DNA of 64,000 nt from Alphaproteobacteria bacterium (GTDB lineage Bacteria; Pseudomonadota; Alphaproteobacteria; CAISOG01): NCBI GenBank assembly GCA_044345375.1, contig JBIJBF010000002.1, positions 46,619 to 110,618 on the forward strand. The letters run 5' to 3'. Positions 2,108 through 61,968 of this stretch are shown here, one piece after another (position 1 is the first letter of the stretch; every line of letters starts with the position of its first letter). Below the pieces are notes generated by a model. The model was not told the origin of the DNA. It did not search any database and was given only the letters and a program-made list of their open reading frames with translations. The position numbers and the translations under genes were made by a program.

Positions 2108-3574
2108 ATGAAGTCAACTTGGGCAAAACTGGCGGTCTTAGGTTGGTTGGGGGTTTGCGCGCTAACCCTTCCGGTGCTGGCAACCCCGTCTGAGGATGGC
2201 GATCGCCTGTACGACAAGGGCTTTTTTCCGCAGGCCTTGGCGAAATACCAGGCCGAGTTGCGCACCACCAATGGCTGTGTTGGCACTTATGATTTGCGGC
2301 GCCCCCAGGTGCAACGGGCGCTCAAACAACTGGGGTCGATGTATGATAGTGGGGAGGGGGTGGCGGGCAATAGTCCCGATCCCAGCAAGGCGTTGCGTTG
2401 TTACACCAACCTTGGCGACTACGCCACCGCCCGTATTTTTGTGCGGCTTGGCGATATGCACACCACCGCCACCGGCTATCCCACCAACCAAGCGCCCGAT
2501 TTCCAAAAGGCCTTTAACGCCTATTGGAAGGCGGTGGGCAAGGGGGATAGCGGCGCCAAGATTAAGCTGGGGCGGATGTATCTTAATGGGCCATACCCCG
2601 CCGATGACAACCCCAATGCCTTTAACAACAACGACCGGCAACGCTATCAATACGCCGTCAATTTGCTGTTGGAATCCGCCAAATTTGACAACCCGCAATC
2701 GCAATTTTATCTGGGGCAGGTGGCGCAAAAGGGCTGGGGCTGCAACGCCAGCGACGTAAGGGCGTGGGGATGCGTGAAAAATGATGACGGCGGCAGCTAT
2801 GGCACGCCAACCCCAGCACTGGCCACCACTTGGTATGAAAAAGCTGCGCGGGGAAATTACGCGCCGGCGATGACCGCGCTGGCCAAACTGGCTGAGGGGG
2901 CTGGCAACGCGATTGCTGCCTATACCTGGTATGATTTGGCCAACAAGGCGGGCGATTCCTCCGTCAAGCCCATGGTGCCGCCCAATTGCTGGGAAAACGC
3001 CATGGCCGATCCCAGCACGATGGTTGACGGCGTGTCGGTGTTGGCGCAGGACAACCTGCCCACCTTTGTGGGCAAAAGCTGCACCGAACACACCCTGTAC
3101 AAAACCTATTCCAGCATTACCTATAACCAGGCCAACAACACGATTCTTTATAGCACCACCGATCCCACCCTGCGCACCCAGGCGCTGTATTATTACGTGA
3201 TGTGCGATGCCAATCTGTACCGTCAATCCTGCCAAGATGAAACCAGAACGCCCAAGGGGGTGTTGGCCTTGTCTTATGCGGTGACCGACCCTAACGAGCG
3301 CAGCGAAGCCCTGAAATACTGCACCAACCCTGACAACAACCCGCTGGTGCAACGGCTGAAAAGCAGCACCGACTATGTCAAAAATTCGCTGCTCAACAGC
3401 ATGAATTACAAGGATCGTTGCACGGCGCAATGCCTGTCCAAACTGTACAGCAGCAAAATCGGCCAAAGCCGGGATCCATTTTGGAACGATCCCCATAACG
3501 CCAGCTACCAAACCACCTGCGCCAACGGTTGCCCAAGCGCTAATCCGGCCTGCAGCGGCGGTGGCGGGGGGTAG
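2108..3574 (+). CDS. Secreted Cys-rich protein with degenerate Sel1-like repeats (hypothetical)
   Basis: 488-aa ORF with an N-terminal signal peptide (MKSTWAKLAVLGWLGVCALTLPVLATP). The N-terminal half has Sel1-like A..Y.KA...G...A...LG.MY motifs. The C-terminal half is Cys/Asn/Tyr-rich and ends in a GGGGG tail. The TAG stop is embedded in the recurrent 3' motif. Confidence 0.6.
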   Translation: MKSTWAKLAVLGWLGVCALTLPVLATPSEDGDRLYDKGFFPQALAKYQAELRTTNGCVGTYDLRRPQVQRALKQLGSMYDSGEGVAGNSPDPSKALRCYTNLGDYATARIFVRLGDMHTTATGYPTNQAPDFQKAFNAYWKAVGKGDSGAKIKLGRMYLNGPYPADDNPNAFNNNDRQRYQYAVNLLLESAKFDNPQSQFYLGQVAQKGWGCNASDVRAWGCVKNDDGGSYGTPTPALATTWYEKAARGNYAPAMTALAKLAEGAGNAIAAYTWYDLANKAGDSSVKPMVPPNCWENAMADPSTMVDGVSVLAQDNLPTFVGKSCTEHTLYKTYSSITYNQANNTILYSTTDPTLRTQALYYYVMCDANLYRQSCQDETRTPKGVLALSYAVTDPNERSEALKYCTNPDNNPLVQRLKSSTDYVKNSLLNSMNYKDRCTAQCLSKLYSSKIGQSRDPFWNDPHNASYQTTCANGCPSANPACSGGGGG

Positions 3575-3598
3575 AGCATTTTCCATTTCGCCCACCAC
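3572..3598 (+). repeat. Stop-codon-overlapping 3' motif, copy 1 (TAGAGCATTTTCCATTTCGCCCACCAC)
   Basis: It begins at the TAG stop of the 2108..3574 gene. It belongs to a five-member motif family in this window. Confidence 0.7.
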
Positions 3599-3669: not shown

Positions 3670-3696
3670 GTGGTGAACGAAAGCGAAAACGCTCTA
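3670..3696 (-). repeat. Stop-codon-overlapping 3' motif, copy 2 (sense on minus strand: TAGAGCGTTTTCGCTTTCGTTCACCAC)
   Basis: The reverse complement begins at the TAG stop of ispE (CTA at 3694-3696). Together with copy 1 it forms an inverted pair separated by ~70 bp between convergent genes. Confidence 0.7.
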
Positions 3697-6450: not shown

Positions 6451-7293
6451 ATGACGGCTAACCATAACCAAGATTCGGCCGATACAAAAGAACTTTTGCG
6501 AAAATTGCGCGCTGGCCTGGTCTGGCAGATGCAAATGGGGGTGGATGAGGTGGTTGGGCTAAATGCCCTTGAGGCTTTTGTGCCACCGGAACCGGTTGTT
6601 GCCGACAAAAAGCTGGTGTCCAAACCCACCTCGCAGGCGACGGCGGTTGCGCCTGTGGTGGTACCGCCCGGGGTTTTGCCAGCAGCGGCGCCTTCCCAGT
6701 CAGGCTCATTGGCCGATCGTTTGGATGCGCTGCAGCGGGAGGTGGCGGCGTATGAGGAGTGCGGGCTAAAAAGCTTTGCCACCAATTTGGTGTTTGGCGA
6801 TGGCAACCCCCGTGCCCCGGTGATGTTGATTGGTGAGGCGCCAGGAGCTGAGGAGGATCGCTTGGGCAAGCCCTTTGTCGGCCAAAGCGGCCAGCTGCTG
6901 GACAAGATTTTGGCCAGCATTGGCATCACCCGCGAGAGCGCCTATATCAGCAACATGATTTTTTGGCGCCCACCCGGCAACCGCCCGCCCACCGATCGCG
7001 AGATTGCCCAGTGCCTGCCCTTTGTTGAGCGTCATATCGCCCTGATCGCCCCCAAATTTCTGGTGCTGGTGGGCGGCATCGCGGTTAAGGGGATTTTGCA
7101 GCGCAAGGAGGGGATAACCAGGTTGCGCGGCCAATGGCACGACTACCGCAACCCGGCCTTTACCGAGGATCAGCCAAGCGTGCGGGCGCTGGTCACCTAT
7201 CACCCCGCCTTTTTGATGCGCAGCCCCGGCAACAAGCGCGAAAGCTGGCTGGATATGCTGAAGCTAAAGCAAGCGCTGGCGGAGGCTGATTAA
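6451..7293 (+). CDS. Family 4 uracil-DNA glycosylase (phage-polymerase-type UDG)
   Basis: The C-terminal domain carries the family-4 UDG motifs GEAPGAEEDRLGKPFVGQSGQLLDKIL...ISNMIFWRPPGNR...LVTYHPAFLMR. The ORF table start (6211) is inside the convergent TPR gene. The internal ATG at 6451 (TCATGA) is preferred. Confidence 0.8.
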   Translation: MTANHNQDSADTKELLRKLRAGLVWQMQMGVDEVVGLNALEAFVPPEPVVADKKLVSKPTSQATAVAPVVVPPGVLPAAAPSQSGSLADRLDALQREVAAYEECGLKSFATNLVFGDGNPRAPVMLIGEAPGAEEDRLGKPFVGQSGQLLDKILASIGITRESAYISNMIFWRPPGNRPPTDREIAQCLPFVERHIALIAPKFLVLVGGIAVKGILQRKEGITRLRGQWHDYRNPAFTEDQPSVRALVTYHPAFLMRSPGNKRESWLDMLKLKQALAEAD

Positions 7294-7303
7294 ACCCGGT
7301 CCC

Positions 7304-7321
7304 TAAAGCGAAAATGCTCTA
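7304..7321 (-). repeat. Stop-codon-overlapping 3' motif, copy 3 (sense on minus strand: TAGAGCATTTTCGCTTTAG)
   Basis: It abuts the orphan GST 3'-end duplicate and has the same sequence as the motif at the other gene ends. Confidence 0.65.
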
Positions 7322-7366
7322 CCCATCCAGCTCAGCATAGTGCGGCGCAGGGGGCAGGCTGACTGG
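7319..7366 (-). repeat. Orphan duplicate of the GST 3' terminus (last 13-15 codons + stop)
   Basis: The 48-bp segment ctacccatccaGctcagcAtaGtgcggCgcagggggcaggctg... is the imperfect direct repeat of 8297..8344. On the minus strand it encodes ...SLPPAPHYAELDG*, identical in amino acid sequence to the C-terminus of the intact GST. All four nucleotide differences are synonymous. Confidence 0.8.
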
Positions 7367-8296
7367 GTGATTAAGGCGCGCGACAATCAATATTTAGATT
7401 TTTTGGTTGATATTTGATTTGGCATCTGTTATTTTTACGATCAATTTATCAACTAATAAAAATCAAATGGAGAGACAAGATGCCTGACGTGATTAATTAT
7501 ATGTTATTTGAGGGCAGGTTTATGGAATACGGGAGTTTAATTACGCCGTCGGCCTACAGAACACTCAATGATGCCGTAGAAAACCCTAGATATACTGTTG
7601 GTTTTTGTGGTGGCAAAGAATATAGATATTTTGACCTGACTAAAATTAGAGCTACCAACCCTAACGCCGGATTGAACTGGAGCAACTGGGATAACGAGAA
7701 TTTGCGCGATGCGATTAACTCCTGTGGAGCCTTGGTCGACTTAAGCGGTTCGCATCTGCGTTCCGTATCTCTGAATGGGGCAAATCTGGCGGGGGCGAAT
7801 CTGAGCAATGCGAACCTGTGTGAGGCGAGCCTAAACGGTGCAGATCTAACGATGGCAAACCTGTCTTATTCTGTGATGTTTCAAGCCGGTCTAAAGGGGT
7901 CGAAGCTATTGGGGGCGCAGATGGTGAAGACGCATTTGGGGAATGCGGATCTGAGAGAGGCGGATCTGAGTTGGGCGAATCTGCAGGGGGCGAATCTGGA
8001 GAGTTACCTGTGCTACTTCAATCTGTGGGGAGAGAAGATGCAAGGGGAGAATCTGCGGGGGGCGAAGATGAAAGGGACGAATTTACAAGACGCTGAGTTT
8101 ACAGCGATATGGAAGCAACTAACAGTTGAGCAAGCCTTAGGGGCACGAAAATTGAGACCTGATCAGCGTGATTTGGTGTATCAACACAATACGTGGCTTC
8201 CAGCCCTTACAACCCAAATCTCCAACGGGTTGGAATGGGTGAATCAGCGCCATCCGGAGTTTTTCTACGGACGGTAGGTGAGGTTTTTACCTGCCC
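7367..8296 (+). mobile_element. Low-GC ~0.93-kb inserted cassette carrying a pentapeptide-repeat gene, lying between the two copies of the GST 3' end
   Basis: There is a sharp GC drop (an AT-rich promoter-like stretch at 7381-7500). The cassette is flanked by the 45-bp imperfect direct repeats 7319..7366 and 8297..8344. No recombinase is present. Confidence 0.6.
7414..8277 (+). CDS. Pentapeptide-repeat protein
   Basis: 287 aa with ~25 consecutive A(D/N)LxX pentapeptides (ANLAGANLSNANLCEASLNGADLTMANLSYS...ADLREADLSWANLQGANL). The GC content is low relative to the flanks. Confidence 0.8.
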   Translation: MIWHLLFLRSIYQLIKIKWRDKMPDVINYMLFEGRFMEYGSLITPSAYRTLNDAVENPRYTVGFCGGKEYRYFDLTKIRATNPNAGLNWSNWDNENLRDAINSCGALVDLSGSHLRSVSLNGANLAGANLSNANLCEASLNGADLTMANLSYSVMFQAGLKGSKLLGAQMVKTHLGNADLREADLSWANLQGANLESYLCYFNLWGEKMQGENLRGAKMKGTNLQDAEFTAIWKQLTVEQALGARKLRPDQRDLVYQHNTWLPALTTQISNGLEWVNQRHPEFFYGR

Positions 8297-9025
8297 CTAC
8301 CCATCCAACTCAGCGTAATGCGGGGCAGGGGGCAGGCTGGACAGGCGGTCTTGCAGCAGGCTGCGAAAGGCGGGGCGCGATTTTACCCGCGTGTACCAAT
8401 CCTTGGCGGCCAACTGCCGATCCCATGGAACATCGTTGATATAGTCCAATACGGATAGATGCGCCGCCGCCGCGCAATCGGCCACGCTGAAATGATCGCC
8501 GGCCAACCAATTGCGCCGCTCAGCCAAATAGCCGATGTAGTTCAGATGGAAGATGATGTTTTCACGACCCGCCCGAATTGCCCCCGAATCCGGCTCGCCG
8601 CGGCCGGTGATGCGCTTCATCACCCGCTCACCCAACAAATTTTTGGTCACCTCCTGCGCGAATTTTTCGTCAAACCAGCTGATCAGGCGGCGCACCTCAG
8701 CCCGCTCCTGCGGGGTTTGCCCCAGCAGGTTGATGCCGCCCTCAACCTCCTCAAGATACTCCACAATCGCCTGGCTGCCCACCACCGCCTGGTCGTTGCC
8801 ATCAATCATCACCGGCACCTGGCCCGCGGGGTTGATCGCCAAGAATTCGGGGCGCCGCTGCCAATAGGATTCCACCTCAAACGCGGCATGCAGCTTTTTC
8901 TCAGCCAGCACCAACCGCACCTTGCGCGAATAGGGGCACAGCGGAAAATGGAACAGGGTGCGAAGGCCTGGCGCCAGATGGCTGTTGTTCTGGAAATGAT
9001 TTTGGGTCGCCGTGGAATAATTCAT
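8297..9025 (-). CDS. Glutathione S-transferase family protein
   Basis: The GST N-terminal thioredoxin-like motif is present (LFHFPLCPYSRKVRLVLAEKKL...VPVMIDGN), followed by a C-terminal alpha domain. The preferred start is MNYSTAT at 9025. The ORF table gives 9049. Confidence 0.8.
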   Translation of the reverse strand: MNYSTATQNHFQNNSHLAPGLRTLFHFPLCPYSRKVRLVLAEKKLHAAFEVESYWQRRPEFLAINPAGQVPVMIDGNDQAVVGSQAIVEYLEEVEGGINLLGQTPQERAEVRRLISWFDEKFAQEVTKNLLGERVMKRITGRGEPDSGAIRAGRENIIFHLNYIGYLAERRNWLAGDHFSVADCAAAAHLSVLDYINDVPWDRQLAAKDWYTRVKSRPAFRSLLQDRLSSLPPAPHYAELDG

Positions 9026-9057
9026 GATCGTTCTTTCTTTTACTAACAAAACACTTG

Positions 9058-9783
9058 TTAAGACATGTATTGCCCGCCGTTGATGGACAGGGTTTCCCCG
9101 TTGATAAAGGCGGCGCGGCTGTCGACCAGAAACAGCACCGCGTGCGCCACCTCCTCAGCCATGCCAAGCCGGCCGGCGGGGATGGTGGCGATCACCTTTT
9201 CCAACACCTCAGGGTGCACCGCGGCGACCATTTCGGTGTTGATATAGCCGGGGGCGATGGCGTTCACCGTAATGCCCTTGCCAGCCGATTCCAGTGCCAA
9301 CGCCTTGGTAAAACCAATCACGCCAGCCTTGGCAGCGGTGTAGTTGGTTTGCCCAACCTGACCCTTTTGCCCGTTGATTGAGGCGATGTTGATGATGCGG
9401 CCGTAACCCCGATCGCGCATGCCGCCAATCACCTGGCGGCACATGTTAAAGCAGGAGTTCAGGTTGGTGACCAGCACCGATGACCACTGCTCAGGCGTCA
9501 TTTTGTGCAGGAAGCCATCGCGGGTGATGCCGGCGTTGTTGATCAAAATCTCCACCGGCCCCAACTGTTCGGCGACCAGGGCGATGCCAGCAGCACAGGC
9601 GTCAAAATCGCCCACATCCCACTGATAGGTAGGAATGCCGGTTTGTTCGGTAAATTTTTTGGCCGCCGCCTGATTGCCGGCGTAGCTGACCGCCACCCGA
9701 TGGCCAGCCTGTTGCAGCGCCAGCGCAATCACCGCGCCGATTCCGCGGGTTCCACCTGTTACCAATGCCACACGATTTGTCAT
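9058..9783 (-). CDS. phbB: Acetoacetyl-CoA reductase (short-chain dehydrogenase/reductase)
   Basis: MTNRVALVTGGTRGIGAVIALAL...NNAGITRD...YTAAKAGVIGFTKALALE...ITVNAIAPGYINTEMV. This is the classical PhaB/FabG-type signature. The preferred start is at 9783. Confidence 0.85.
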   Translation of the reverse strand: MTNRVALVTGGTRGIGAVIALALQQAGHRVAVSYAGNQAAAKKFTEQTGIPTYQWDVGDFDACAAGIALVAEQLGPVEILINNAGITRDGFLHKMTPEQWSSVLVTNLNSCFNMCRQVIGGMRDRGYGRIINIASINGQKGQVGQTNYTAAKAGVIGFTKALALESAGKGITVNAIAPGYINTEMVAAVHPEVLEKVIATIPAGRLGMAEEVAHAVLFLVDSRAAFINGETLSINGGQYMS

Positions 9784-9905
9784 GTATATGTTTCCCACGA
9801 TAGTTTTTTAGGCAGCTTAAGTTTTAGGCAAAAGCTTGGCGTTTGAGAAGGAAAATCTTTGTCCCCCTTGCAAGGGGGGGGCTACCATGGCCGGCTTATA
9901 TCTTC

Positions 9906-10054
9906 TATAGTCATTCCACTTTAAAAACTTACAGTGCTGCAAATGTCATGAGGTCTGCGATACGGTGCTCATGTACCCCATCGGTACACTCCGCTCCGTT
10001 TCTCGACCTCATGACATTTTCGCAGCTGTAACTTTTTAAATTGAAACGACTATA
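9906..10054. mobile_element. 149-bp palindromic MITE-like element, copy 1
   Basis: It has ~27-bp imperfect terminal inverted repeats (TATAGTCATTCCACTTTAAAAACTTAC ... GTAACTTTTTAAATTGAAACGACTATA) and TA-rich flanks. The whole element is a near-perfect palindrome. A second copy, ~95% identical, lies at 47748..47896. Confidence 0.75.
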
Positions 10055-10101: not shown

Positions 10102-11862
10102 ATGACCAAGCCAACATCGGATTTTCTGCCCAGCAAGTCGTTATGGAAACGCCTGATGCAAGGCTATGTGCGGCGGGAGGTGGGCAGCTTGGCGGTAGCC
10201 CTGCTGTGCATGGCGTTGGCGGCGGGCGCAACGGCGGCCTTGGCCAAGTTGATGGAGCCGGTGCTGGATCAGGTGTTTGTGCAAAAAAACGCGGGCAGCT
10301 TAACCCGCATCGCCGGGCTGGTGCTGGCCACCTTTGTGATCAAGGGGTTGGCCACCTATGGCCAGACCGTGCTGATGACCGGCGTGGGGCTTAGAATCGT
10401 TGCCAGATTGCAAGAACAGGTGGGCAGCCACCTGCTGGGCGCGGATTTGGCCTATTTCCAACGCCACCCCACCGGTGTGCTGTTGACCCATATGATTCAG
10501 GATATTCAGCAGTTGCGCTACGCGGTGTCGAACGCCATCACCGCGATTGGCAAAGACAGCCTGACCCTGATCGCCCTGCTTGCCGTGATGTTCTGGCAGG
10601 ATTGGCGCCTGGCCTGTCTGGCCTTTATCGCCTTTCCGGTGGCGATTTTGCCGATTCGTTGGATTGGTCGGCGGGTACGGCGTGAGGCGGCCAGTGCGCA
10701 GGTGCAGCAGGCCAACCTCTCAAGCCTGTTGATGCAGCTGTTTCAGGGCATTCGCTACGTCAAGGCCTATGGGGCTGAGGGGGTGGAGTCGGCGCGGCTG
10801 GCGGCGCAGGTGGCCGACACCCAAACCCACCAGATGATGCTAACGCGGGTTAAGGCGGCGGCGCACCCCCTGATGGAGGGGTTGGGGGGCGTGGCGATCG
10901 TGCTGGTGATCATTTATGGCGGCGAGCAGGTGATGGCCGGCACCCGCACCACCGGCAGCTTTTTCTCTTTCATCACCGCCCTGCTGCTGGCCTATGAGCC
11001 GCTCAAACGCCTGACCCATCTGAACGCCAATCTGCAGGAGGGGTTGGCGAGTGCCGCCCGGGTGTTTGCCCTGCTCGACACCCCAAGGCAGGTGGTGGAT
11101 ATCCATGGCGCCGCTGCCCTGCGATCCAGCGGCGGTGAAATTCGGTTCGATCAGGTCAGCTTTGGCTATAGCGACGAACAATCGGTGCTTGACCGCCTAA
11201 GCTTTACCATTCCCGCGGGGCAAACGGTGGCGATTGTTGGGCCATCGGGGGCTGGCAAATCCACCATTGCCAACCTGATGCTGCGCTTTCAGGATCCTTT
11301 GGCTGGGCAGGTGCTGGTGGATGGCCAGGATATCGCCGCGGTGACCCAGGCCAGCCTGCGCCAATCGATCGCCTTTGTGGGTCAAGAAATTTACCTGTTT
11401 AACGCCAGCGTTAAGGATAATGTTGCGTATAATCAGGAACATGCCAGCCAGAAAAACATTGAATCGGCGGTGGCGGCGGCGGGCGCGGCCGGTTTTGTGG
11501 CGGAACTGCCCGATGGCTTGGCAAGTTTGGTGGGCGAATTGGGCAACCGCCTGTCGGGCGGCCAGCGGCAACGCATCGCCCTGGCCAGAGCGTTGCTGCG
11601 CGATGCGCCAATTCTGTTGTTGGATGAGGCCACCTCAGCCCTTGACCCGGAATCCGAACGCCACGTGCTGGCCAGCCTAAAACGGCTGCGGATGGGCAAA
11701 ACCACGGTGATGATCGCCCACCGCCTGTCAACCATTGTCGACGCCGACCAAATCTTGGTCCTATCAGCCGGCCAGTTGGTTGAGCAGGGACGGCACGAGA
11801 AACTGCTGGCCAGCGGCGGCCTGTACAGCCAACTTTATCAGCAACCTGAGGGGGGTGCGTAA
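10102..11862 (+). CDS. ABC transporter permease/ATPase, MsbA-like lipid exporter family
   Basis: 586 aa. The N-terminal region has 6 TM segments. The C-terminal NBD carries Walker A GPSGAGKST, the signature LSGGQRQRIALARALL and Walker B ILLLDEATSALD. Confidence 0.85.
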   Translation: MTKPTSDFLPSKSLWKRLMQGYVRREVGSLAVALLCMALAAGATAALAKLMEPVLDQVFVQKNAGSLTRIAGLVLATFVIKGLATYGQTVLMTGVGLRIVARLQEQVGSHLLGADLAYFQRHPTGVLLTHMIQDIQQLRYAVSNAITAIGKDSLTLIALLAVMFWQDWRLACLAFIAFPVAILPIRWIGRRVRREAASAQVQQANLSSLLMQLFQGIRYVKAYGAEGVESARLAAQVADTQTHQMMLTRVKAAAHPLMEGLGGVAIVLVIIYGGEQVMAGTRTTGSFFSFITALLLAYEPLKRLTHLNANLQEGLASAARVFALLDTPRQVVDIHGAAALRSSGGEIRFDQVSFGYSDEQSVLDRLSFTIPAGQTVAIVGPSGAGKSTIANLMLRFQDPLAGQVLVDGQDIAAVTQASLRQSIAFVGQEIYLFNASVKDNVAYNQEHASQKNIESAVAAAGAAGFVAELPDGLASLVGELGNRLSGGQRQRIALARALLRDAPILLLDEATSALDPESERHVLASLKRLRMGKTTVMIAHRLSTIVDADQILVLSAGQLVEQGRHEKLLASGGLYSQLYQQPEGGA

Positions 11863-11872
11863 GGCGATCGTA

Positions 11873-11928
11873 AATTCCCCTCCCGCGGAGGGGTGGCAGG
11901 CGCAGCCTGACGGGGTGGTTTTTTCAGG
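11873..11928. repeat. REP-like GC-rich palindromic unit (locus A)
   Basis: aattcccctcccgcggaggggtggcaggcgcagcctgacggggtgg. This is the same unit family as at 13606, 41286, 46383 and 56566. Confidence 0.8.
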
Positions 11929-11932
11929 GTGT

Positions 11933-13447
11933 TTAACGCCCCCTTTCCTGCTCTGCCAGCCTTTGCGCATCTAGATATGCCAGCGTTTCCTGTGCCGCTT
12001 GTTTGACCACGGAATCTGTCGCTTCAGCTGCGATGATTCGTAGTGTTTTGTCTGCATCTGGTGCAAGATTTCCTACCGCTTGGAAGCCCTGAATAATGGT
12101 TTGCCGCACATAACGATCGTCTTGTGTATCTTCGGCTATCCTTAACAGTGTTTCTTGTAATGGGAAATCTTGGGGTGTTTTTTGCAGAAGTGCGGTGATC
12201 GCGGCGCAACGCAGGCCAGGTGAGTTTCCTTTATAGGTTGCGGTTTCTAGCCATCTCTCGTGCGAATTTTTATTCTGATCTATAGATGTTATCGTTTCTA
12301 TCGCAGATTCCTTGACCAAGGAATCTGTCGCTTTGTTCGCGATCATGTGTAGTTTTGTGTATGCATTTGGTTCAAGGTTTTCTACCCCTTGGAAACCCTT
12401 AATAATAGCAACCCTAAGGTCAAAAATTTCTGCTTCATTTTCTGCTATTTCTAAAATTTTTAATTGCATGGAGTAATCTTGGGGTAGATATTGCAAAAGT
12501 TTGGTAATCGCTGTTTGACGTTTGCTAAGACATAGGTCTGCATTATTTGCGTTTCTACACAAATCATTTTTATTTTTTTCTAAATCAACAGACTTCAGCG
12601 TGCTATTTATATCGTTTTTTACATATTGAACCCGATGTCGTGCTGCAATTTGTTGTAGTCTTTTGTATATATTTGGTTTGGAGTATGCTATTCCGGAGAA
12701 ATTACCAATAATATTTTGTATTAATTGGCATTCTGGCGAGTAATCGTTTGTTTCTGTGTTTTCAATAACTGTTAACAAGCAATTTTGAACATGTTCATTG
12801 TTTGGCATAAGATACAAAAGAACATTAATTATTTGGATTTTATTTTTTAAATATTCTTCTTGATTGATGGCGATTTCACGCAGCCACTCTCTAACCGTCG
12901 AATGATGCCAAGCATGACGATTCCTAGGATCTGTTATATAATCCAAGATTTGCTGATGTGATTGTTGTGATTGCCGTGCGGCCGTTGTAAGAACTTGGCT
13001 AGCTCTATTAGAAAGTTCAGGGTGGCTTCTGCCGATACAGTCGCCTATTTCCTTCATGACTTCTGGGTTTTCTATCGATGGGACAAGAGCATTGATTGCT
13101 GCAAGGCCAACAACGACATGCTCGGGAGAATGTTCGTGTAACAAGGCACCAATCACCTCTTGTAGCTCGGCATTTCCTGAAACGGTATGGCCTAAGGCAT
13201 TAATCGCCGCTGCGCGAATCTCCGGTAATCGTTGCGTGTTTTGAGCGCAGGTCAGCAACTCCTGTTGCACAACAGGATATTTTGCATAGTTTTTGAAAAT
13301 CCAGATGAGAGTTTTAGTATTCGGACCGTTTTCACTGAAAACAAGATCTTTCGGATCATTAAGCCGTGGCAGCAATTTCTCGAAGAACAGCTCTGCCCAA
13401 AACCCCATTGGACGCACAAATTCCGCTGAAACTTCTGTTGTGCCCAT
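11933..13447 (-). CDS. HEAT-repeat (PBS-lyase-like) protein, hypothetical
   Basis: 504-aa ORF made of degenerate HEAT-like helical repeats. Most of the gene is AT-rich (12250-13450) and the 3' part has a diverged internal tandem duplication. It is flanked on both sides by REP-like elements. Confidence 0.6.
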   Translation of the reverse strand: MGTTEVSAEFVRPMGFWAELFFEKLLPRLNDPKDLVFSENGPNTKTLIWIFKNYAKYPVVQQELLTCAQNTQRLPEIRAAAINALGHTVSGNAELQEVIGALLHEHSPEHVVVGLAAINALVPSIENPEVMKEIGDCIGRSHPELSNRASQVLTTAARQSQQSHQQILDYITDPRNRHAWHHSTVREWLREIAINQEEYLKNKIQIINVLLYLMPNNEHVQNCLLTVIENTETNDYSPECQLIQNIIGNFSGIAYSKPNIYKRLQQIAARHRVQYVKNDINSTLKSVDLEKNKNDLCRNANNADLCLSKRQTAITKLLQYLPQDYSMQLKILEIAENEAEIFDLRVAIIKGFQGVENLEPNAYTKLHMIANKATDSLVKESAIETITSIDQNKNSHERWLETATYKGNSPGLRCAAITALLQKTPQDFPLQETLLRIAEDTQDDRYVRQTIIQGFQAVGNLAPDADKTLRIIAAEATDSVVKQAAQETLAYLDAQRLAEQERGR

Positions 13448-13605
13448 GAAAAACCCCTTAAGAAAGATATCAACGAATAAAACTATATTTTATTTTAAAT
13501 GTCAATAAATGTTATTGTAGCATAGGGTTTTTGGTTTGGTGTTGCTGTTGGCGTGCCTGGCCCGTTAGGCTGTGCCGGACAAAGCGGGGGGGCGCAAAGA
13601 AAGAA

Positions 13606-13706
13606 CCACCCCGTCAGGCTTCGCCTGCCACCCCTCCGCGGGAGGGGAATAAGTAAGACGTCCCTAAATTCCCCTCCTGCGGAGGGGTGCCCGAAGGGCG
13701 GGGTGG
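13606..13706. repeat. REP-like element cluster (two inverted units), locus B
   Basis: ccaccccgtcaggcttcgcctgccacccctccgcgggaggggaat, then after a spacer the inverted unit aattcccctcctgcggaggggtgcccgaagggcggggtgg. It lies directly downstream of rho and the HEAT gene. Confidence 0.8.
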
Positions 13707-13740
13707 TTCTTGCGGGTAATACCCCGTCAGAAAGCAACTC

Positions 13741-15247: not shown

Positions 15248-15275
15248 GGTGGTGGACGAAAACGAAAATGCTCTA
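15248..15275 (-). repeat. Stop-codon-overlapping 3' motif, copy 4 (sense on minus strand: TAGAGCATTTTCGTTTTCGTCCACCAC)
   Basis: It begins at the TAG stop of putA (CTA 15273-15275). Confidence 0.7.
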
Positions 15276-41271: not shown

Positions 41272-41285
41272 GGGGGGCGTAAGGA

Positions 41286-41419
41286 CCACCCCGTCAGGCT
41301 TCGCCTGCCACCCCTCCGTTATCATTTTGTCAGGCAAAGCCTGACGGGGGGGAGGGGAATAAGTGCGTCGGGTAATTCCCTTCCTGCGGAGGGGTGGCAG
41401 GCAAAGCCTGACGGGGTGG
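41286..41419. repeat. REP-like element cluster (three units), locus C
   Basis: ccaccccgtcaggcttcgcctgccacccctcc ... caggcaaagcctgacggggggaggggaat ... aattcccttcctgcggaggggtggcaggcaaagcctgacggggtgg. It lies between recX-like and polA. Confidence 0.8.
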
Positions 41420-41444
41420 TTGCTGCGGAAGGGTTGCTGAACTT

Positions 41445-46382: not shown

Positions 46383-46468
46383 CACCCCTCCAAGAGGGAG
46401 GGGAATTGATGCGGCCGTCTTATTCCCCTCCCTCTTGGAGGGGTGGCAGGCGAAGCCTGACGGGGTGG
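46383..46468. repeat. REP-like element pair, locus D
   Basis: cacccctccaagagggaggggaatt...attcccctccctcttggaggggtggcaggcgaagcctgacggggtgg. It lies downstream of secF and rpsD, which are convergent. Confidence 0.8.
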
Positions 46469-46564
46469 TTTTGCCTGCCTGAATCTTCCAAAAAAATGGC
46501 CCATCTCGAATCTGAGATAGGCCATTTTTGATAATGTTTGAAGGTCTTTCCTGGGAAAGAAACC

Positions 46565-47747: not shown

Positions 47748-47896
47748 TATCGTCATTCCACTTTAAAAACTTACAGTGCTGCAAATGTCATGGGGTCTGC
47801 GATACGGTGCTCATGTACGCGTAGGTACACTCCGCTCCGTTTCTCGACCTCATGACATTTTCGCAGTCTGTAACTTTTTAAATTGAAACGACTATA
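47748..47896. mobile_element. 149-bp palindromic MITE-like element, copy 2
   Basis: ~95% identical to 9906..10054. It lies between tRNA-Thr and serA, which are divergent. Confidence 0.75.
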
Positions 47897-50930: not shown

Positions 50931-52037
50931 ATGGAACGCTACATCGCCTTGTTAAAAGAATTCCTGCAGGAGCTCACAGCCTCGTCAGAGGTTTCTGCTG
51001 AGGCGCTTTTTGCCGAAACGCAGGCCAAGGCAAAGGGCGGGGATGTGGTGGCGCAACGAAATTTGGGTGTGCTCTACGCCCTTGGGGCTGGGGTTGGCCA
51101 AGACGCGGCCAAGGCGCTGCACTGGTTTCAATTGGCGGCGTATAGCGACGATGCCGTGGCGCAATATATCTTGGGCGTGATTTATGAGGAGGGGGCGGGG
51201 GAAGACAGCGATCCTGCTGAGGCGCTCAAATGGTATCGTAATTCGGCCGAGCAGGGGTATGCAACCGCGCAAAACTGTCTTGGTTGGATGTACCGTTGGG
51301 GCGTTGGGGTGCCCCAGGATTACGCTGAAGCGGTCAAGTGGTACCGCAAAGCCGCGAAGCAGGGGGATGCAAAGGCGCAAAGAAATCTTGCTGTCATGTA
51401 TTATGAGGGTTATGGGGTTCGCAAAGACGCTGCAAAGGCGATGGTATGGTTCAGAGAGGCGGCAGAACAAGGAAATGTATCTGCGCAATTCTTGCTTGGA
51501 GCTATGTATTCCGCAGGTGGGGAAGATTTGCCTAAGAACAATATCGAAGCGGTCAAATGGTACCGCAAAGCCGCTGAGCAGGGGGATGTATCCGCGCAAT
51601 TCTTGCTTGGGACTATGTATTTCGTAGGTGACGGATTGCCTCGGAACGATATCGAAGCGGTCAAATGGTACCGCAAAGCAGCGAAGCAGGGTTATGCATC
51701 CGCCCAACACTCGCTTGGGGTTATGTATGAGTGGGGGTGGGGCGTTCCCAAAGACGCAGCCACGGCGGTCAAATGGTACCGCAAATCAGCGAAGCAGGGC
51801 GATAGGTATGGACAGAGAGATCTTGGCCTGAGTTATGCCAATGGCCATGGGGTGCCCAAGAACAAGGAAAAAGCCTATATCTGGTTGGAGCGAGCTGTTG
51901 CACAGGGGAAGGAGGATGCCTGCAAAATGCGCGATGAAATTGCCGCCCAACTAACCCCAGCGCAGCTTGCCCGTGCGAAAAAGGCGGCCAGCCAGCCTTT
52001 GGACGTGGAGGTGTTCGACGCTGAATCAACCGCTTGA
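50931..52037 (+). CDS. Sel1-repeat protein (9 tandem Sel1 repeats), no signal peptide
   Basis: Repeated 36-aa units of the form AEAVKWYRKAAEQGDVSAQFLLGTMYFVGDGLPRND. The DNA at 51100-51850 is a tandem array of ~108-bp repeats with lower GC. Confidence 0.75.
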   Translation: MERYIALLKEFLQELTASSEVSAEALFAETQAKAKGGDVVAQRNLGVLYALGAGVGQDAAKALHWFQLAAYSDDAVAQYILGVIYEEGAGEDSDPAEALKWYRNSAEQGYATAQNCLGWMYRWGVGVPQDYAEAVKWYRKAAKQGDAKAQRNLAVMYYEGYGVRKDAAKAMVWFREAAEQGNVSAQFLLGAMYSAGGEDLPKNNIEAVKWYRKAAEQGDVSAQFLLGTMYFVGDGLPRNDIEAVKWYRKAAKQGYASAQHSLGVMYEWGWGVPKDAATAVKWYRKSAKQGDRYGQRDLGLSYANGHGVPKNKEKAYIWLERAVAQGKEDACKMRDEIAAQLTPAQLARAKKAASQPLDVEVFDAESTA

Positions 52038-56525: not shown

Positions 56526-56565
56526 GGACCGTTGGTAGTTTCAGTGGAGGAGGTGTCAGCAAGAA

Positions 56566-56610
56566 CCACCCCGTCAGGCTTCGCCTGCCACCCCTCCGCG
56601 GGAGGGGAAT
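56566..56610. repeat. REP-like unit, locus E
   Basis: ccaccccgtcaggcttcgcctgccacccctccgcgggaggggaat lies between uvrD and pheT, which are convergent. Confidence 0.8.
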
Positions 56611-60934: not shown

Positions 60935-61951
60935 TTGATGTCCCCAATTTTTTCTGCCCTTGCTAGTTCGTCGGCACAGTTTCATGCAGCAGGGGGGGTA
61001 GAGGGGGCGCCCAGCTTAACAGATGTGCAGGCAGCGATGCTGAGGCTGCACCGGTTTCACTTAGCCACCACGCCGTTGCTGCCATCGCCCGATTTGGCTG
61101 CGCAGATTTCTGGGCAGGTTTGGTTAAAGGCTGAGCATCGTCAGGTCACCGGCAGTTTTAAATTGCGCGGCGCCCTGAACCGGCTGTTGCAGTTCAACGA
61201 GGCGGAGCGGCAGGCGGGGGTGGTTTCCTACTCCTCAGGCAATTTTGGCATTGCGGTGGCGTTTGGCGGCTGGAATCTGGGCATTCCGGTGACCATTGTG
61301 GTGCCCCAAGATGCGCCGGCGGCGAAATTGCACAAAATTCGGTTGATGGGCGCCAAGATTGTGTTGGCCGATCGCACCAGCGACAACCGCATCCAACTGG
61401 CCCGTGATTTGGCGCAACAAACCGGCGCGGTGCTGCTGCCCTTTGCGGATCAGCCGCAGGTGATTGCCGGCGCGGGCACGGTGGTGTTGGAAATGCTGGA
61501 ACAGTTGCGGGCGCAAAGCCTCGACACGGTTTTGGTGCCCTGTGGCGGGGGCAGTTTGACGGCGGGCAGCGCGCTGGTGCTGCAATCCCTTAGCCCCAAA
61601 ACGCGGGTGATCGCGGTGGAACCGGTGGGGCTGGACGATACCGCGCGGTCTTTGGCGGCGGGCAAAATTTTGGCCAATGATCCGGCGGCGCGCAGCATCT
61701 GTGATTCATTGCTGACCCGCCAACCCAGCCCTTTGACCTTCGCGATGCTGCAGGCTGGTCAAGCCGCCAACCAACTGGCCTGCATGGCGGTCGAAGATAT
61801 CGCGGTGCAACATGCGGTGGTGTGGTTGGCGAAACGGCTGCATCAGGTGGTTGAGCCTGGCGGGGCGATCGCCCTGGCCGCCCTGCTTAGCCAGCCACAA
61901 AATTTTGTCGGGCAACGGGTTGGGGTGCTGCTGACCGGGGCGAACGGATAG
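60935..61951 (+). CDS. PLP-dependent threonine/serine dehydratase-like enzyme
   Basis: The PLP-binding lysine is in LKAEHRQVTGSFKLRGALN. A Gly-rich loop (SSGNFGIAVA) and the tryptophan-synthase-beta-like fold II are present. The TAG stop is embedded in the 3' motif. Confidence 0.7.
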   Translation: MMSPIFSALASSSAQFHAAGGVEGAPSLTDVQAAMLRLHRFHLATTPLLPSPDLAAQISGQVWLKAEHRQVTGSFKLRGALNRLLQFNEAERQAGVVSYSSGNFGIAVAFGGWNLGIPVTIVVPQDAPAAKLHKIRLMGAKIVLADRTSDNRIQLARDLAQQTGAVLLPFADQPQVIAGAGTVVLEMLEQLRAQSLDTVLVPCGGGSLTAGSALVLQSLSPKTRVIAVEPVGLDDTARSLAAGKILANDPAARSICDSLLTRQPSPLTFAMLQAGQAANQLACMAVEDIAVQHAVVWLAKRLHQVVEPGGAIALAALLSQPQNFVGQRVGVLLTGANG

Positions 61952-61968
61952 AGCATTTTCCGTTTTGG
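61949..61968 (+). repeat. Stop-codon-overlapping 3' motif, copy 5 (TAGAGCATTTTCCGTTTTGG)
   Basis: It begins at the TAG stop of the 60935..61951 gene. Confidence 0.65.

Follow-up and report, generated by a model that had tools for sequence, protein, structure and literature searches.

How can a gene take up foreign-looking DNA within its very last codons and remain unharmed? The question is raised by a stretch of 64,000 nucleotides from an Alphaproteobacteria bacterium of the CAISOG01 lineage (assembly GCA_044345375.1, contig JBIJBF010000002.1, positions 46,619 to 110,618), which we call the window. Here an fzlA-like gene, earlier described as a glutathione S-transferase (GST) gene, and a convergent gene for a uracil-DNA glycosylase (UDG) enclose a gene for a pentapeptide-repeat protein (PRP), and the 3′ end of fzlA is present twice, once on each side of the PRP gene. 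The original prediction took this arrangement for the footprint of an integrative cassette that had brought along its own replacement gene end. Comparison with strains of the same species shows the locus to be a strain-variable accessory islet of about 1 kb, with one foreign-looking gene between convergent UDG and fzlA.

A duplicated gene end and one foreign-looking gene

A repeat search around the locus returned one direct repeat pair and no second pair of this kind: 43 nt at 7319-7361 and again at 8297-8339, identical at 39/43 positions (91%) and 978 bp apart from start to start. On the minus strand, both copies encode SLPPAPHYAELDG and end in TAG. The earlier description of ~45-bp copies 978 bp apart was right about the repeat and its spacing; the extents given for it, to 7366 and 8344, were too long, as similarity ends at 7361 and 8339. 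The copies differ at four pairs of positions (7330, 7337, 7340 and 7346 against 8308, 8315, 8318 and 8324), and each difference is synonymous, as had been claimed; four synonymous differences out of four would arise by chance with a probability of 0.003 if substitutions were uniform and of 0.02 in a model restricted to transitions. All four lie within the stop-proximal 25 nt, and the distal block of 15 nt (CAGCCTGCCCCCTGC) is identical. As a control for chance, the 45-nt fzlA terminus was compared with 3-6 kb flanks at ~50 other fzlA loci, where its best match was at most 28/45, against 39/43 here; the loci of two Nisaea species (L012 and L014) are treated apart, below.

Read from the UDG side, the first part after the UDG gene is a post-stop motif (TAGAGCATTTTCGCTTTAGG, 7294-7321, minus strand) that starts at the TAG of the first repeat copy and forms a solo arm of a dispersed genomic element. 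This first copy, the orphan (7319-7361, minus strand), is truncated 40 nt upstream of the stop. It is followed by an AT-rich leader of 118 nt (7362-7479, plus strand) with a promoter-like site at 7407-7435 (TTGATA, 17 nt, TATTTT, with an extended -10) and a ribosome-binding site, GGAGAG, at 7469-7474. Then come the PRP gene (7480-8277, plus strand), an orphan gene of 265 aa convergent with fzlA, and a trailer of 19 nt from the PRP stop to the fzlA stop (8278-8296), the final 3 nt of which (8294-8296) match the flank found at empty sites. The second copy (8297-8339, minus strand) is attached to fzlA, completes it and is identical to the alleles of three empty-site contigs (L045, L049, L052). 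The insert is thus compact, consisting of leader, one intact open reading frame (ORF) and trailer, with no pseudogene debris and only 118 nt + 19 nt of non-coding DNA.

The composition of the interior is foreign-looking. The GC content of the unique part (7362-8296) is 0.47, against 0.58 for the whole window, and falls to 0.31 in the leader; GC at third codon positions is 0.55 in the PRP gene against 0.70-0.75 in the neighbouring genes. The comparison of GC and codon usage with the flanks that had been proposed therefore comes out lower for the insert on both counts, and the description of an AT-rich interior whose sole substantial ORF (7480-8277, plus strand) is a pentapeptide-repeat gene holds. 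The stretch from the PRP gene to fzlA has no predicted intrinsic terminator, inspection by eye found no convincing terminal inverted repeats or target-site duplication at the cassette ends, and Rfam has no match for the cassette or for the post-stop motif.

Empty and occupied sites in the population

Contigs of the same species were retrieved from many lake metagenomes by exact-protein look-ups. Some are occupied (L038-L044, L046, L050, L053) and 99.9-100% identical to the window; others are empty (L045, L047, L048, L049, L051, L052), 97-99% identical to it, and carry a single fzlA terminus whose stop lies 9 bp from the UDG stop. The locus is a segregating insertion polymorphism. The occupied arrangement recurs in independent assemblies from at least eight samples, by which an assembly artefact is ruled out. 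Strains with and without the insert encode one and the same FzlA protein. In the empty-site strains, the convergent UDG and fzlA stops are so close that there is no room for a terminator, and the last UDG codons overlap sequence that is intergenic beside fzlA in the sister genus.

Against all six empty-site contigs, BLAST alignments break at 7283 and resume at 8294, so that 1010 bp of the window (7284-8293) replace 16 bp (TAGCGCTTAAGCCAAC) of the empty alleles. The replaced interval reaches beyond the cassette. The last three codons of UDG and its stop (7284-7293) are specific to the occupied allele, in which the protein ends in AEAD and not in ADSA, and a 25-nt motif spacer (TAGAGCATTTTCG) stands in place of GCCAACCCC. 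These extra differences indicate that the occupied allele is a chimera and not a simple insertion into one of the sampled empty sites. UDG variants ending in AEAD occur in three UDG backgrounds and are occupied wherever the contig extends far enough (L069, L073); a further contig, L070, goes no further than the UDG stop and so says nothing about occupancy.

It had been predicted that related genomes would show an empty site reading UDG, motif and GST gene with a single terminus. Conspecific contigs do show empty sites with a single terminus; the motif is absent from all those sampled. No motif-bearing empty site of the form UDG(AEAD)-motif-fzlA was found among the sampled empty sites or in the exact-protein look-ups of the AEAD variants, and a scan for the motif/orphan junction in one further collection of metagenome contigs, which does not contain this species, gave 0 matches.

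Origin of the two copies

The orphan-specific bases are all present in working fzlA genes of empty-site strains, three of them in L048 and one in L051. The claim that both copies derive from functional alleles is therefore borne out, since every orphan base is found in some working conspecific gene. The L048 contig differs from the window at 1 nt in 461 nt of the UDG flank, and on the fzlA side it is identical except at five sites within the terminus. The attached copy, together with the 3 nt past its stop (46/46) and at least 1.5 kb of flank (8294-9800), shows no difference from L045, an empty-site contig, and its allele is the commonest at empty sites. The import of the attached copy along with the cassette, which the original prediction had assumed, is for this reason not demonstrable, and that this copy is a conspecific allele weakens the reading of the insert as an integrative cassette. 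As these comparisons show, the two copies are different alleles from this species' own gene pool.

The orphan was described earlier as the native terminus, and this fits what we find: its allele goes with an L048-like UDG flank, and the motif stands after the fzlA stop in related genomes. The same 17 nt (TAGAGCATTTTCGCTTT) follow the fzlA stop in two metagenome-assembled genomes (MAGs) of the sister genus (L001, L003), whose FzlA is 77% identical. Two other sister-genus MAGs (L002, L054) carry GGGTTAGCGGCTTAAGCGCC after the fzlA stop, which resembles the flank at our empty sites (GGGGTTGGCTTAAGCGCTATC). With both flank types found in the sister genus too, the two are long-standing alternatives, and the ancestor may plausibly have been of the motif type. 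The orphan, judged by its sequence, looks like a displaced native-type end. Taken together, the alignments show the occupied allele to be chimeric, with three parts: an fzlA end of the native, motif type, then foreign DNA (7362-8293), then an fzlA end of the empty-site type.

One could also reverse the order of events, with the occupied state ancestral and the empty sites arising by deletion, or suppose a local tandem duplication unrelated to the acquisition of a gene. The orphan does keep the motif-type flank seen in the sister genus, and the sampled empty sites lack the motif. Recombination between the repeats, though, would leave behind the motif and the AEAD end of UDG, and the empty sites have neither; their flank resembles that of L002 and L054 and is no deletion scar. 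Moreover, the empty-site alleles are diverse and the cassette is nearly invariant, and the interior is compositionally foreign. We regard this alternative as highly improbable; as for deletion, the junction sequences lead us to reject it as the source of the empty sites.

The motif has a wider distribution. As stated before, the orphan is followed by a 3′ motif of the genome's own: TAGAGCATTTTCG recurs at other stop codons, with 7 matches against 1.1 expected. Its dispersed form (TAGAGCRTTTTCS...) always starts at a TAG stop and lies at 3572-3584 and 61949-61961 on the plus strand and at 3684-3696, 7309-7321 and 15263-15275 on the minus strand. It is found as well in L001 (at 1285 and 3444) and in L003 (at 3030), and its presence at the fzlA stop varies among sister-genus MAGs. 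Between two convergent genes, the paired copies at 3572-3696 fold into a hairpin of 125 nt (z = -3.2). By its distribution, the dispersed motif behaves like a small mobile or palindromic 3′-end element.

The target gene and its tail

The gene into which the insert falls (8297-9025, minus strand) encodes 242 aa with a GST fold. It matches NCBIfam NF050814 (FtsZBindFzlA) at 5.1e-87 and 291.4 bits, just below the curated cut-off of 300, over profile positions 5-227 of 228; PDB 5nr1, the FzlA of Caulobacter, is matched over its full length at 3e-66 (residues 22-241 of the query aligned with 5-227 of the chain), and several 60%-identical homologues carry the name FzlA at their sources. The earlier label of GST was thus right about the fold, and the profile, structure and homologue names point to an FzlA-like identity: the product is probably an FzlA-family protein and not an ordinary GST.

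In Caulobacter, FzlA is an essential, dose-limiting activator of constriction, and its C-terminal tail is one of two essential surfaces, binding the translocase domain of FtsK; cells do not survive the change D227K, which affects the penultimate residue (PMC10683668). It is precisely this tail that the 43-bp repeat encodes. The tail reads ...HYAELDG here and ...HYA[DEN]LDF in ~50 homologues, the conserved HYA-x-LD being present. The terminal residue of FzlA has been called invariant in the literature; the protein ends in ...LDG here (window 8297-8302) and in ...LDS in the sister genus, and all other retrieved homologues end in ...(L/V)DF. By analogy with Caulobacter, the tail is probably essential in this organism too. 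If so, only insertions that leave a complete attached terminus would survive, and this would also explain why the differences between alleles are synonymous only.

The convergent neighbour (6451-7293, plus strand) is a family-4 UDG, with matches to the Pfam UDG profile at 1.7e-35 and to TIGR00758 at 2.7e-61.

A parallel in Nisaea

When ~50 fzlA loci were searched for a further copy of the terminus, two species stood out, Nisaea denitrificans (L012) and N. nitritireducens (L014). In both, a decayed orphan of the last 45 nt of fzlA, with ~25 nt of 3′ flank, lies ~3 kb downstream of the gene, and it aligns with the fzlA terminus over 69 nt at 78% identity (E = 3e-12). Between the copies is one convergent RTX/beta-propeller gene; the whole arrangement lies at 6739-9790 in L012 and at 6739-10126 in L014. 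Four other Nisaea loci (L009, L011, L013, L019) are empty sites. In L012, a further diverged tandem RTX unit follows the orphan in an array-like manner. Counted back from the stop, the 5′ boundary of the duplication is at 45 nt in Nisaea and at 40 nt in our locus. The Nisaea case is an independent parallel at fzlA.

The independence of the Nisaea case and the near coincidence of the 5′ boundaries (40 against 45 nt) lead us to leave a broader reading open. The fzlA 3′ end would then be a recurrent docking site in alphaproteobacteria for single-gene cassettes without a recombinase, each consisting of its own copy of the tail and a repeat-protein gene in convergent orientation, for the PRP in our case and for an RTX/beta-propeller protein in Nisaea; we consider this unlikely. 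We are just as reluctant to accept the form of capture that it would imply, in which cassettes are anchored on the terminus of an essential gene and not on attI/attC.

Founding of the insertion

The insert contains no recombinase gene or fragment, and none of the genes called over 8 kb to its left and right encodes one, all of them being housekeeping genes; the earlier statement that no recombinase is left stands, as the PRP gene is the only ORF of the insert. The cassette was not found at another locus, in another species or beside an integrase. Its DNA gave no BLAST match to plasmid and phage records, and in viral contigs neither the PRP nor the 36-nt terminus pattern was found. The proposal to look elsewhere for the terminus segment with a PRP gene has thus returned nothing, and the idea of an integrative cassette as a mobile unit finds no support, no second copy having turned up at other loci, in other species, beside an integrase or in the plasmids, phages and viral contigs searched.

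We slightly favour a homology-anchored displacement, carried out with no dedicated recombinase, over integration by an integrase, though we would not go so far as to call it probable. Incoming DNA, in which a conspecific fzlA 3′ end was linked to the PRP gene, would have paired homologously on the fzlA side, and its other end would have become joined to the recipient's fzlA end at a point 43 bp into it. This second join may have been made by homology-facilitated illegitimate recombination, with microhomology expected at the junction, or by a short-homology crossover of a circular molecule in the 15-nt identical block. The native end would have been pushed downstream as the orphan. The recipient would be an unsampled allele of the form UDG(AEAD)-motif-fzlA, and only events leaving a complete terminus would survive, the tail being probably essential here too.

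Our preference for displacement has four grounds: both copies are conspecific alleles; the fzlA side follows one haplotype, and the orphan with the UDG side another; no recombinase or other trace of mobility is found; and the Nisaea duplication takes in intergenic DNA and tandem units. As to the second, the flank on the fzlA side has the haplotype of L045, and that on the UDG side, with the orphan, an L048-like one, a pattern that later recombination could yield equally.

Several observations weigh against displacement. The architecture is exactly like the attL/attR pair of a tyrosine integrase, with a block of identity that runs from inside the gene to its stop. With all four differences in the 25 nt nearest the stop, a crossover at the block's far end would fit, and the 5′ boundaries at 40 nt here and 45 nt in Nisaea hint at a site preference. 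The donor that displacement requires, a PRP gene already linked to an fzlA end, was not found apart from the occupied allele; the supposed recipient, a motif-bearing empty site, is absent from the sampled contigs. It could also be later recombination, and not the founding event, that lies behind the allele pattern.

The earlier model is one of site-specific integration. An attP site with the last ~43 bp of fzlA, on a small circle or a larger element, would have recombined with the gene end by way of a tyrosine or serine recombinase since lost or acting in trans; the repeats would be attL and attR, and what remains would resemble a cis-mobilizable element (CIME). We hold this to be possible, if doubtful. 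The anatomy is canonical, with direct repeats of the target 3′ end, a restored gene, a displaced native end by a native-type flank, foreign composition and empty sites; as in integrative elements, the direct repeats are the target 3′ end and the gene is reconstituted. The 15-nt distal identical block could hold the crossover, the differences being confined to the stop-proximal 25 nt, and the 5′ boundary of the Nisaea orphan is no more than 5 nt away from the corresponding codon position. Set against site-specific integration are the lack of a recombinase gene or fragment in an insert whose non-coding parts come to 118 nt and 19 nt, and the 46/46 identity of the supposedly element-borne copy, including the 3 nt past its stop, to a conspecific chromosomal allele. 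Nor was the cassette found at a second locus, in a second species or among the plasmids, phages and viral contigs searched, and the viral contigs lack the 36-nt terminus pattern; the intergenic DNA and tandem units in Nisaea look more like homology-driven displacement.

Known systems resemble the locus in part. Some integrative elements occupy the 3′ end of a protein-coding or tRNA gene and bring a substitute for it, as do ICESt1 and ICESt3 in fda of Streptococcus thermophilus. Like islands and integrative and conjugative elements of this 3′-end type, the present insert has repeats of the target 3′ end, an intact gene, the native end at the far side, empty sites and cargo of foreign composition; unlike them, it has no recombinase and a single gene in ~0.93 kb, its replacement end is a conspecific chromosomal allele, and the unit is not seen elsewhere. 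CIMEs, mentioned in two papers (PMC5704250, PMC7563491), are att-flanked units that have neither recombination nor transfer genes. The insert shares with them a short cargo between attL/attR-like repeats and the lack of integrase and mobilisation genes; CIMEs, however, are defined by att sites shared with a cognate element, and none using the fzlA terminus was found in the viral contigs or the examined fzlA contigs.

A likeness to displacement is offered by effector loci of Rhs, contact-dependent inhibition (CDI) and type VI secretion systems (T6SS), in which homology-facilitated illegitimate recombination, C-terminal displacement and orphan arrays have been proposed or described (PMC5361080; PMC3240628). 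There, as in the displacement proposed here, homology in a conserved part of the gene provides the anchor, the second junction is illegitimate and the old 3′ end is orphaned downstream, with arrays as in Nisaea L012. The displaced ends of those loci encode different toxin tips, whereas here the same peptide is encoded and the cargo is a separate convergent gene.

Spread and decay of the occupied allele

Across six occupied contigs, the region 7125-8428 contains 0 single-nucleotide polymorphisms (SNPs). A second cassette allele (L071, L072, L074) differs at 7423, 7657 and 7900, with the coding changes N60H and S141A. Flanks differ by 1-3%, against only 3 SNPs between the cassette alleles, and a nearly invariant cassette among diverse flanks implies that the cassette is younger than the diversity of the species. 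Haplotype switches are found on the left in L069 and L070, between 7193 and 7254 (30-90 bp from the edge of the insert), and on the right at 8356 or 8429. Their closeness to the edges indicates that the block has moved between backgrounds by flanking homologous recombination. To judge by these switches, the block is shown to spread between strains by ordinary homologous recombination in its flanks; it carries no mobility genes.

In one lineage, that of the second allele, the cassette is being destroyed by insertion sequences (IS). A 1213-bp element of the IS30 family (L072, 315-1527; insertion at ~7559-7562), whose transposase has HTH_38 and rve domains, cuts the PRP gene short, and an IS630-family element, with an HTH_28/29/32/33 transposase N-terminus, lies in the leader at the TA of 7372-7373 (L074, 1-643). 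The truncation implies that the PRP gene is dispensable.

These contigs bear on the possibility that the insert is the remnant of a much larger island or prophage between the repeats, internally deleted except for the PRP gene. Decayed islands are common, and the repeats would be its surviving att sites; the insert, on the other hand, is extremely compact and free of pseudogene debris, and no larger occupant was seen among 22 contigs read for the exact FzlA protein (10 distinct contexts shown). The divergent left end of L072, a candidate for a larger original element, was rejected when L074 showed it to be the IS630-family insertion at TA. We therefore rate a larger ancestral element as quite improbable.

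The pentapeptide-repeat protein

The PRP matches Pfam PF00805 at 3.5e-22 with 78 bits, above the gathering threshold of 20.2. Its repeats span approximately residues 86-205, and outside its own cluster only this repeat region finds matches. Among 5.8 billion clustered proteins there is no full-length homologue beyond the protein's own cluster(s) of this species. An exhaustive HMMER search with the N-terminal 88 residues returned the protein's own cluster only among 1.8 billion representatives, plus weak matches to proteins with InlB-B repeats (Flg_new_2). The N- and C-terminal parts are without homologues outside the species.

The pentapeptide content predicts a right-handed beta-helix (PF00805), as in the gyrase protectors Qnr, MfpA and AlbG, and there are weak matches to structures of QnrB1. 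The scores are far below the NCBIfam cut-offs (Qnr, 35.3 against 240; MfpA, 30.2 against 360; QnrB, 27.3 against 460), and the PRP, unlike Qnr and MfpA, has additional N- and C-terminal regions without homologues. The protein, once described as having a Qnr/MfpA-like fold, fails the cut-offs of both families. PADLOC has no match for the PRP, and an AlphaFold single-sequence model, with a mean pLDDT of 47, is too poor to use. Weak, sub-threshold matches exist to the secretion-system effectors PipB and PipB2, and other low-GC islets encoding repeat proteins are present in the genome. With these matches and islets in mind, one may guess at an effector-like role.

Other repeats and islets in the window

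A second low-GC islet (~11930-13450, GC 0.38) encodes a HEAT-like protein of 504 aa, the length of which varies among strains (396, 499 or 504 aa). It is bounded by inverted copies, at 11848-11925 and 13598-13716, of a 52-75-nt element resembling repetitive extragenic palindromic (REP) sequences, which is found also at 41278-41423, 46398-46472 and 56558-56610. A repeat of 150 bp, 97-100% identical, occurs at 9906-10054, in the spacer between phbB and an ABC transporter, and at 47748-47896, beside tRNA-Thr; related sequence follows the fzlA motif in the sister-genus MAG L003. This repeat may represent a small RNA gene or a miniature inverted-repeat transposable element. Tandem repeats with a period of ~108 nt lie within a coding region at 51219-51885, which makes this another repeat-protein gene, possibly Sel1/TPR-like.

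Significance

The type of event is already known, and this is a fairly ordinary insertion at a gene end; what it adds is a target in the tail of an FzlA-family protein and the parallel in Nisaea. The locus provides a clean natural case of an accessory gene inserted in the last codons of an FzlA-family gene that is left unharmed by way of its duplicated tail-coding end. Empty, occupied, recombinant-background and IS-decay states are visible side by side in one population. The annotation is corrected in two respects: what was called a GST is FzlA-like, and the PRP does not belong to the Qnr proteins.

Two possible consequences concern the biology of division. The predicted cassette promoter points RNA polymerase antisense into fzlA and, as a speculation, this could matter for the control of division, because FzlA is a dose-limiting activator of constriction in Caulobacter (PMC10683668). 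If the Nisaea parallel shares the same mechanism, the fzlA terminus would be a previously unrecognised insertion hotspot.

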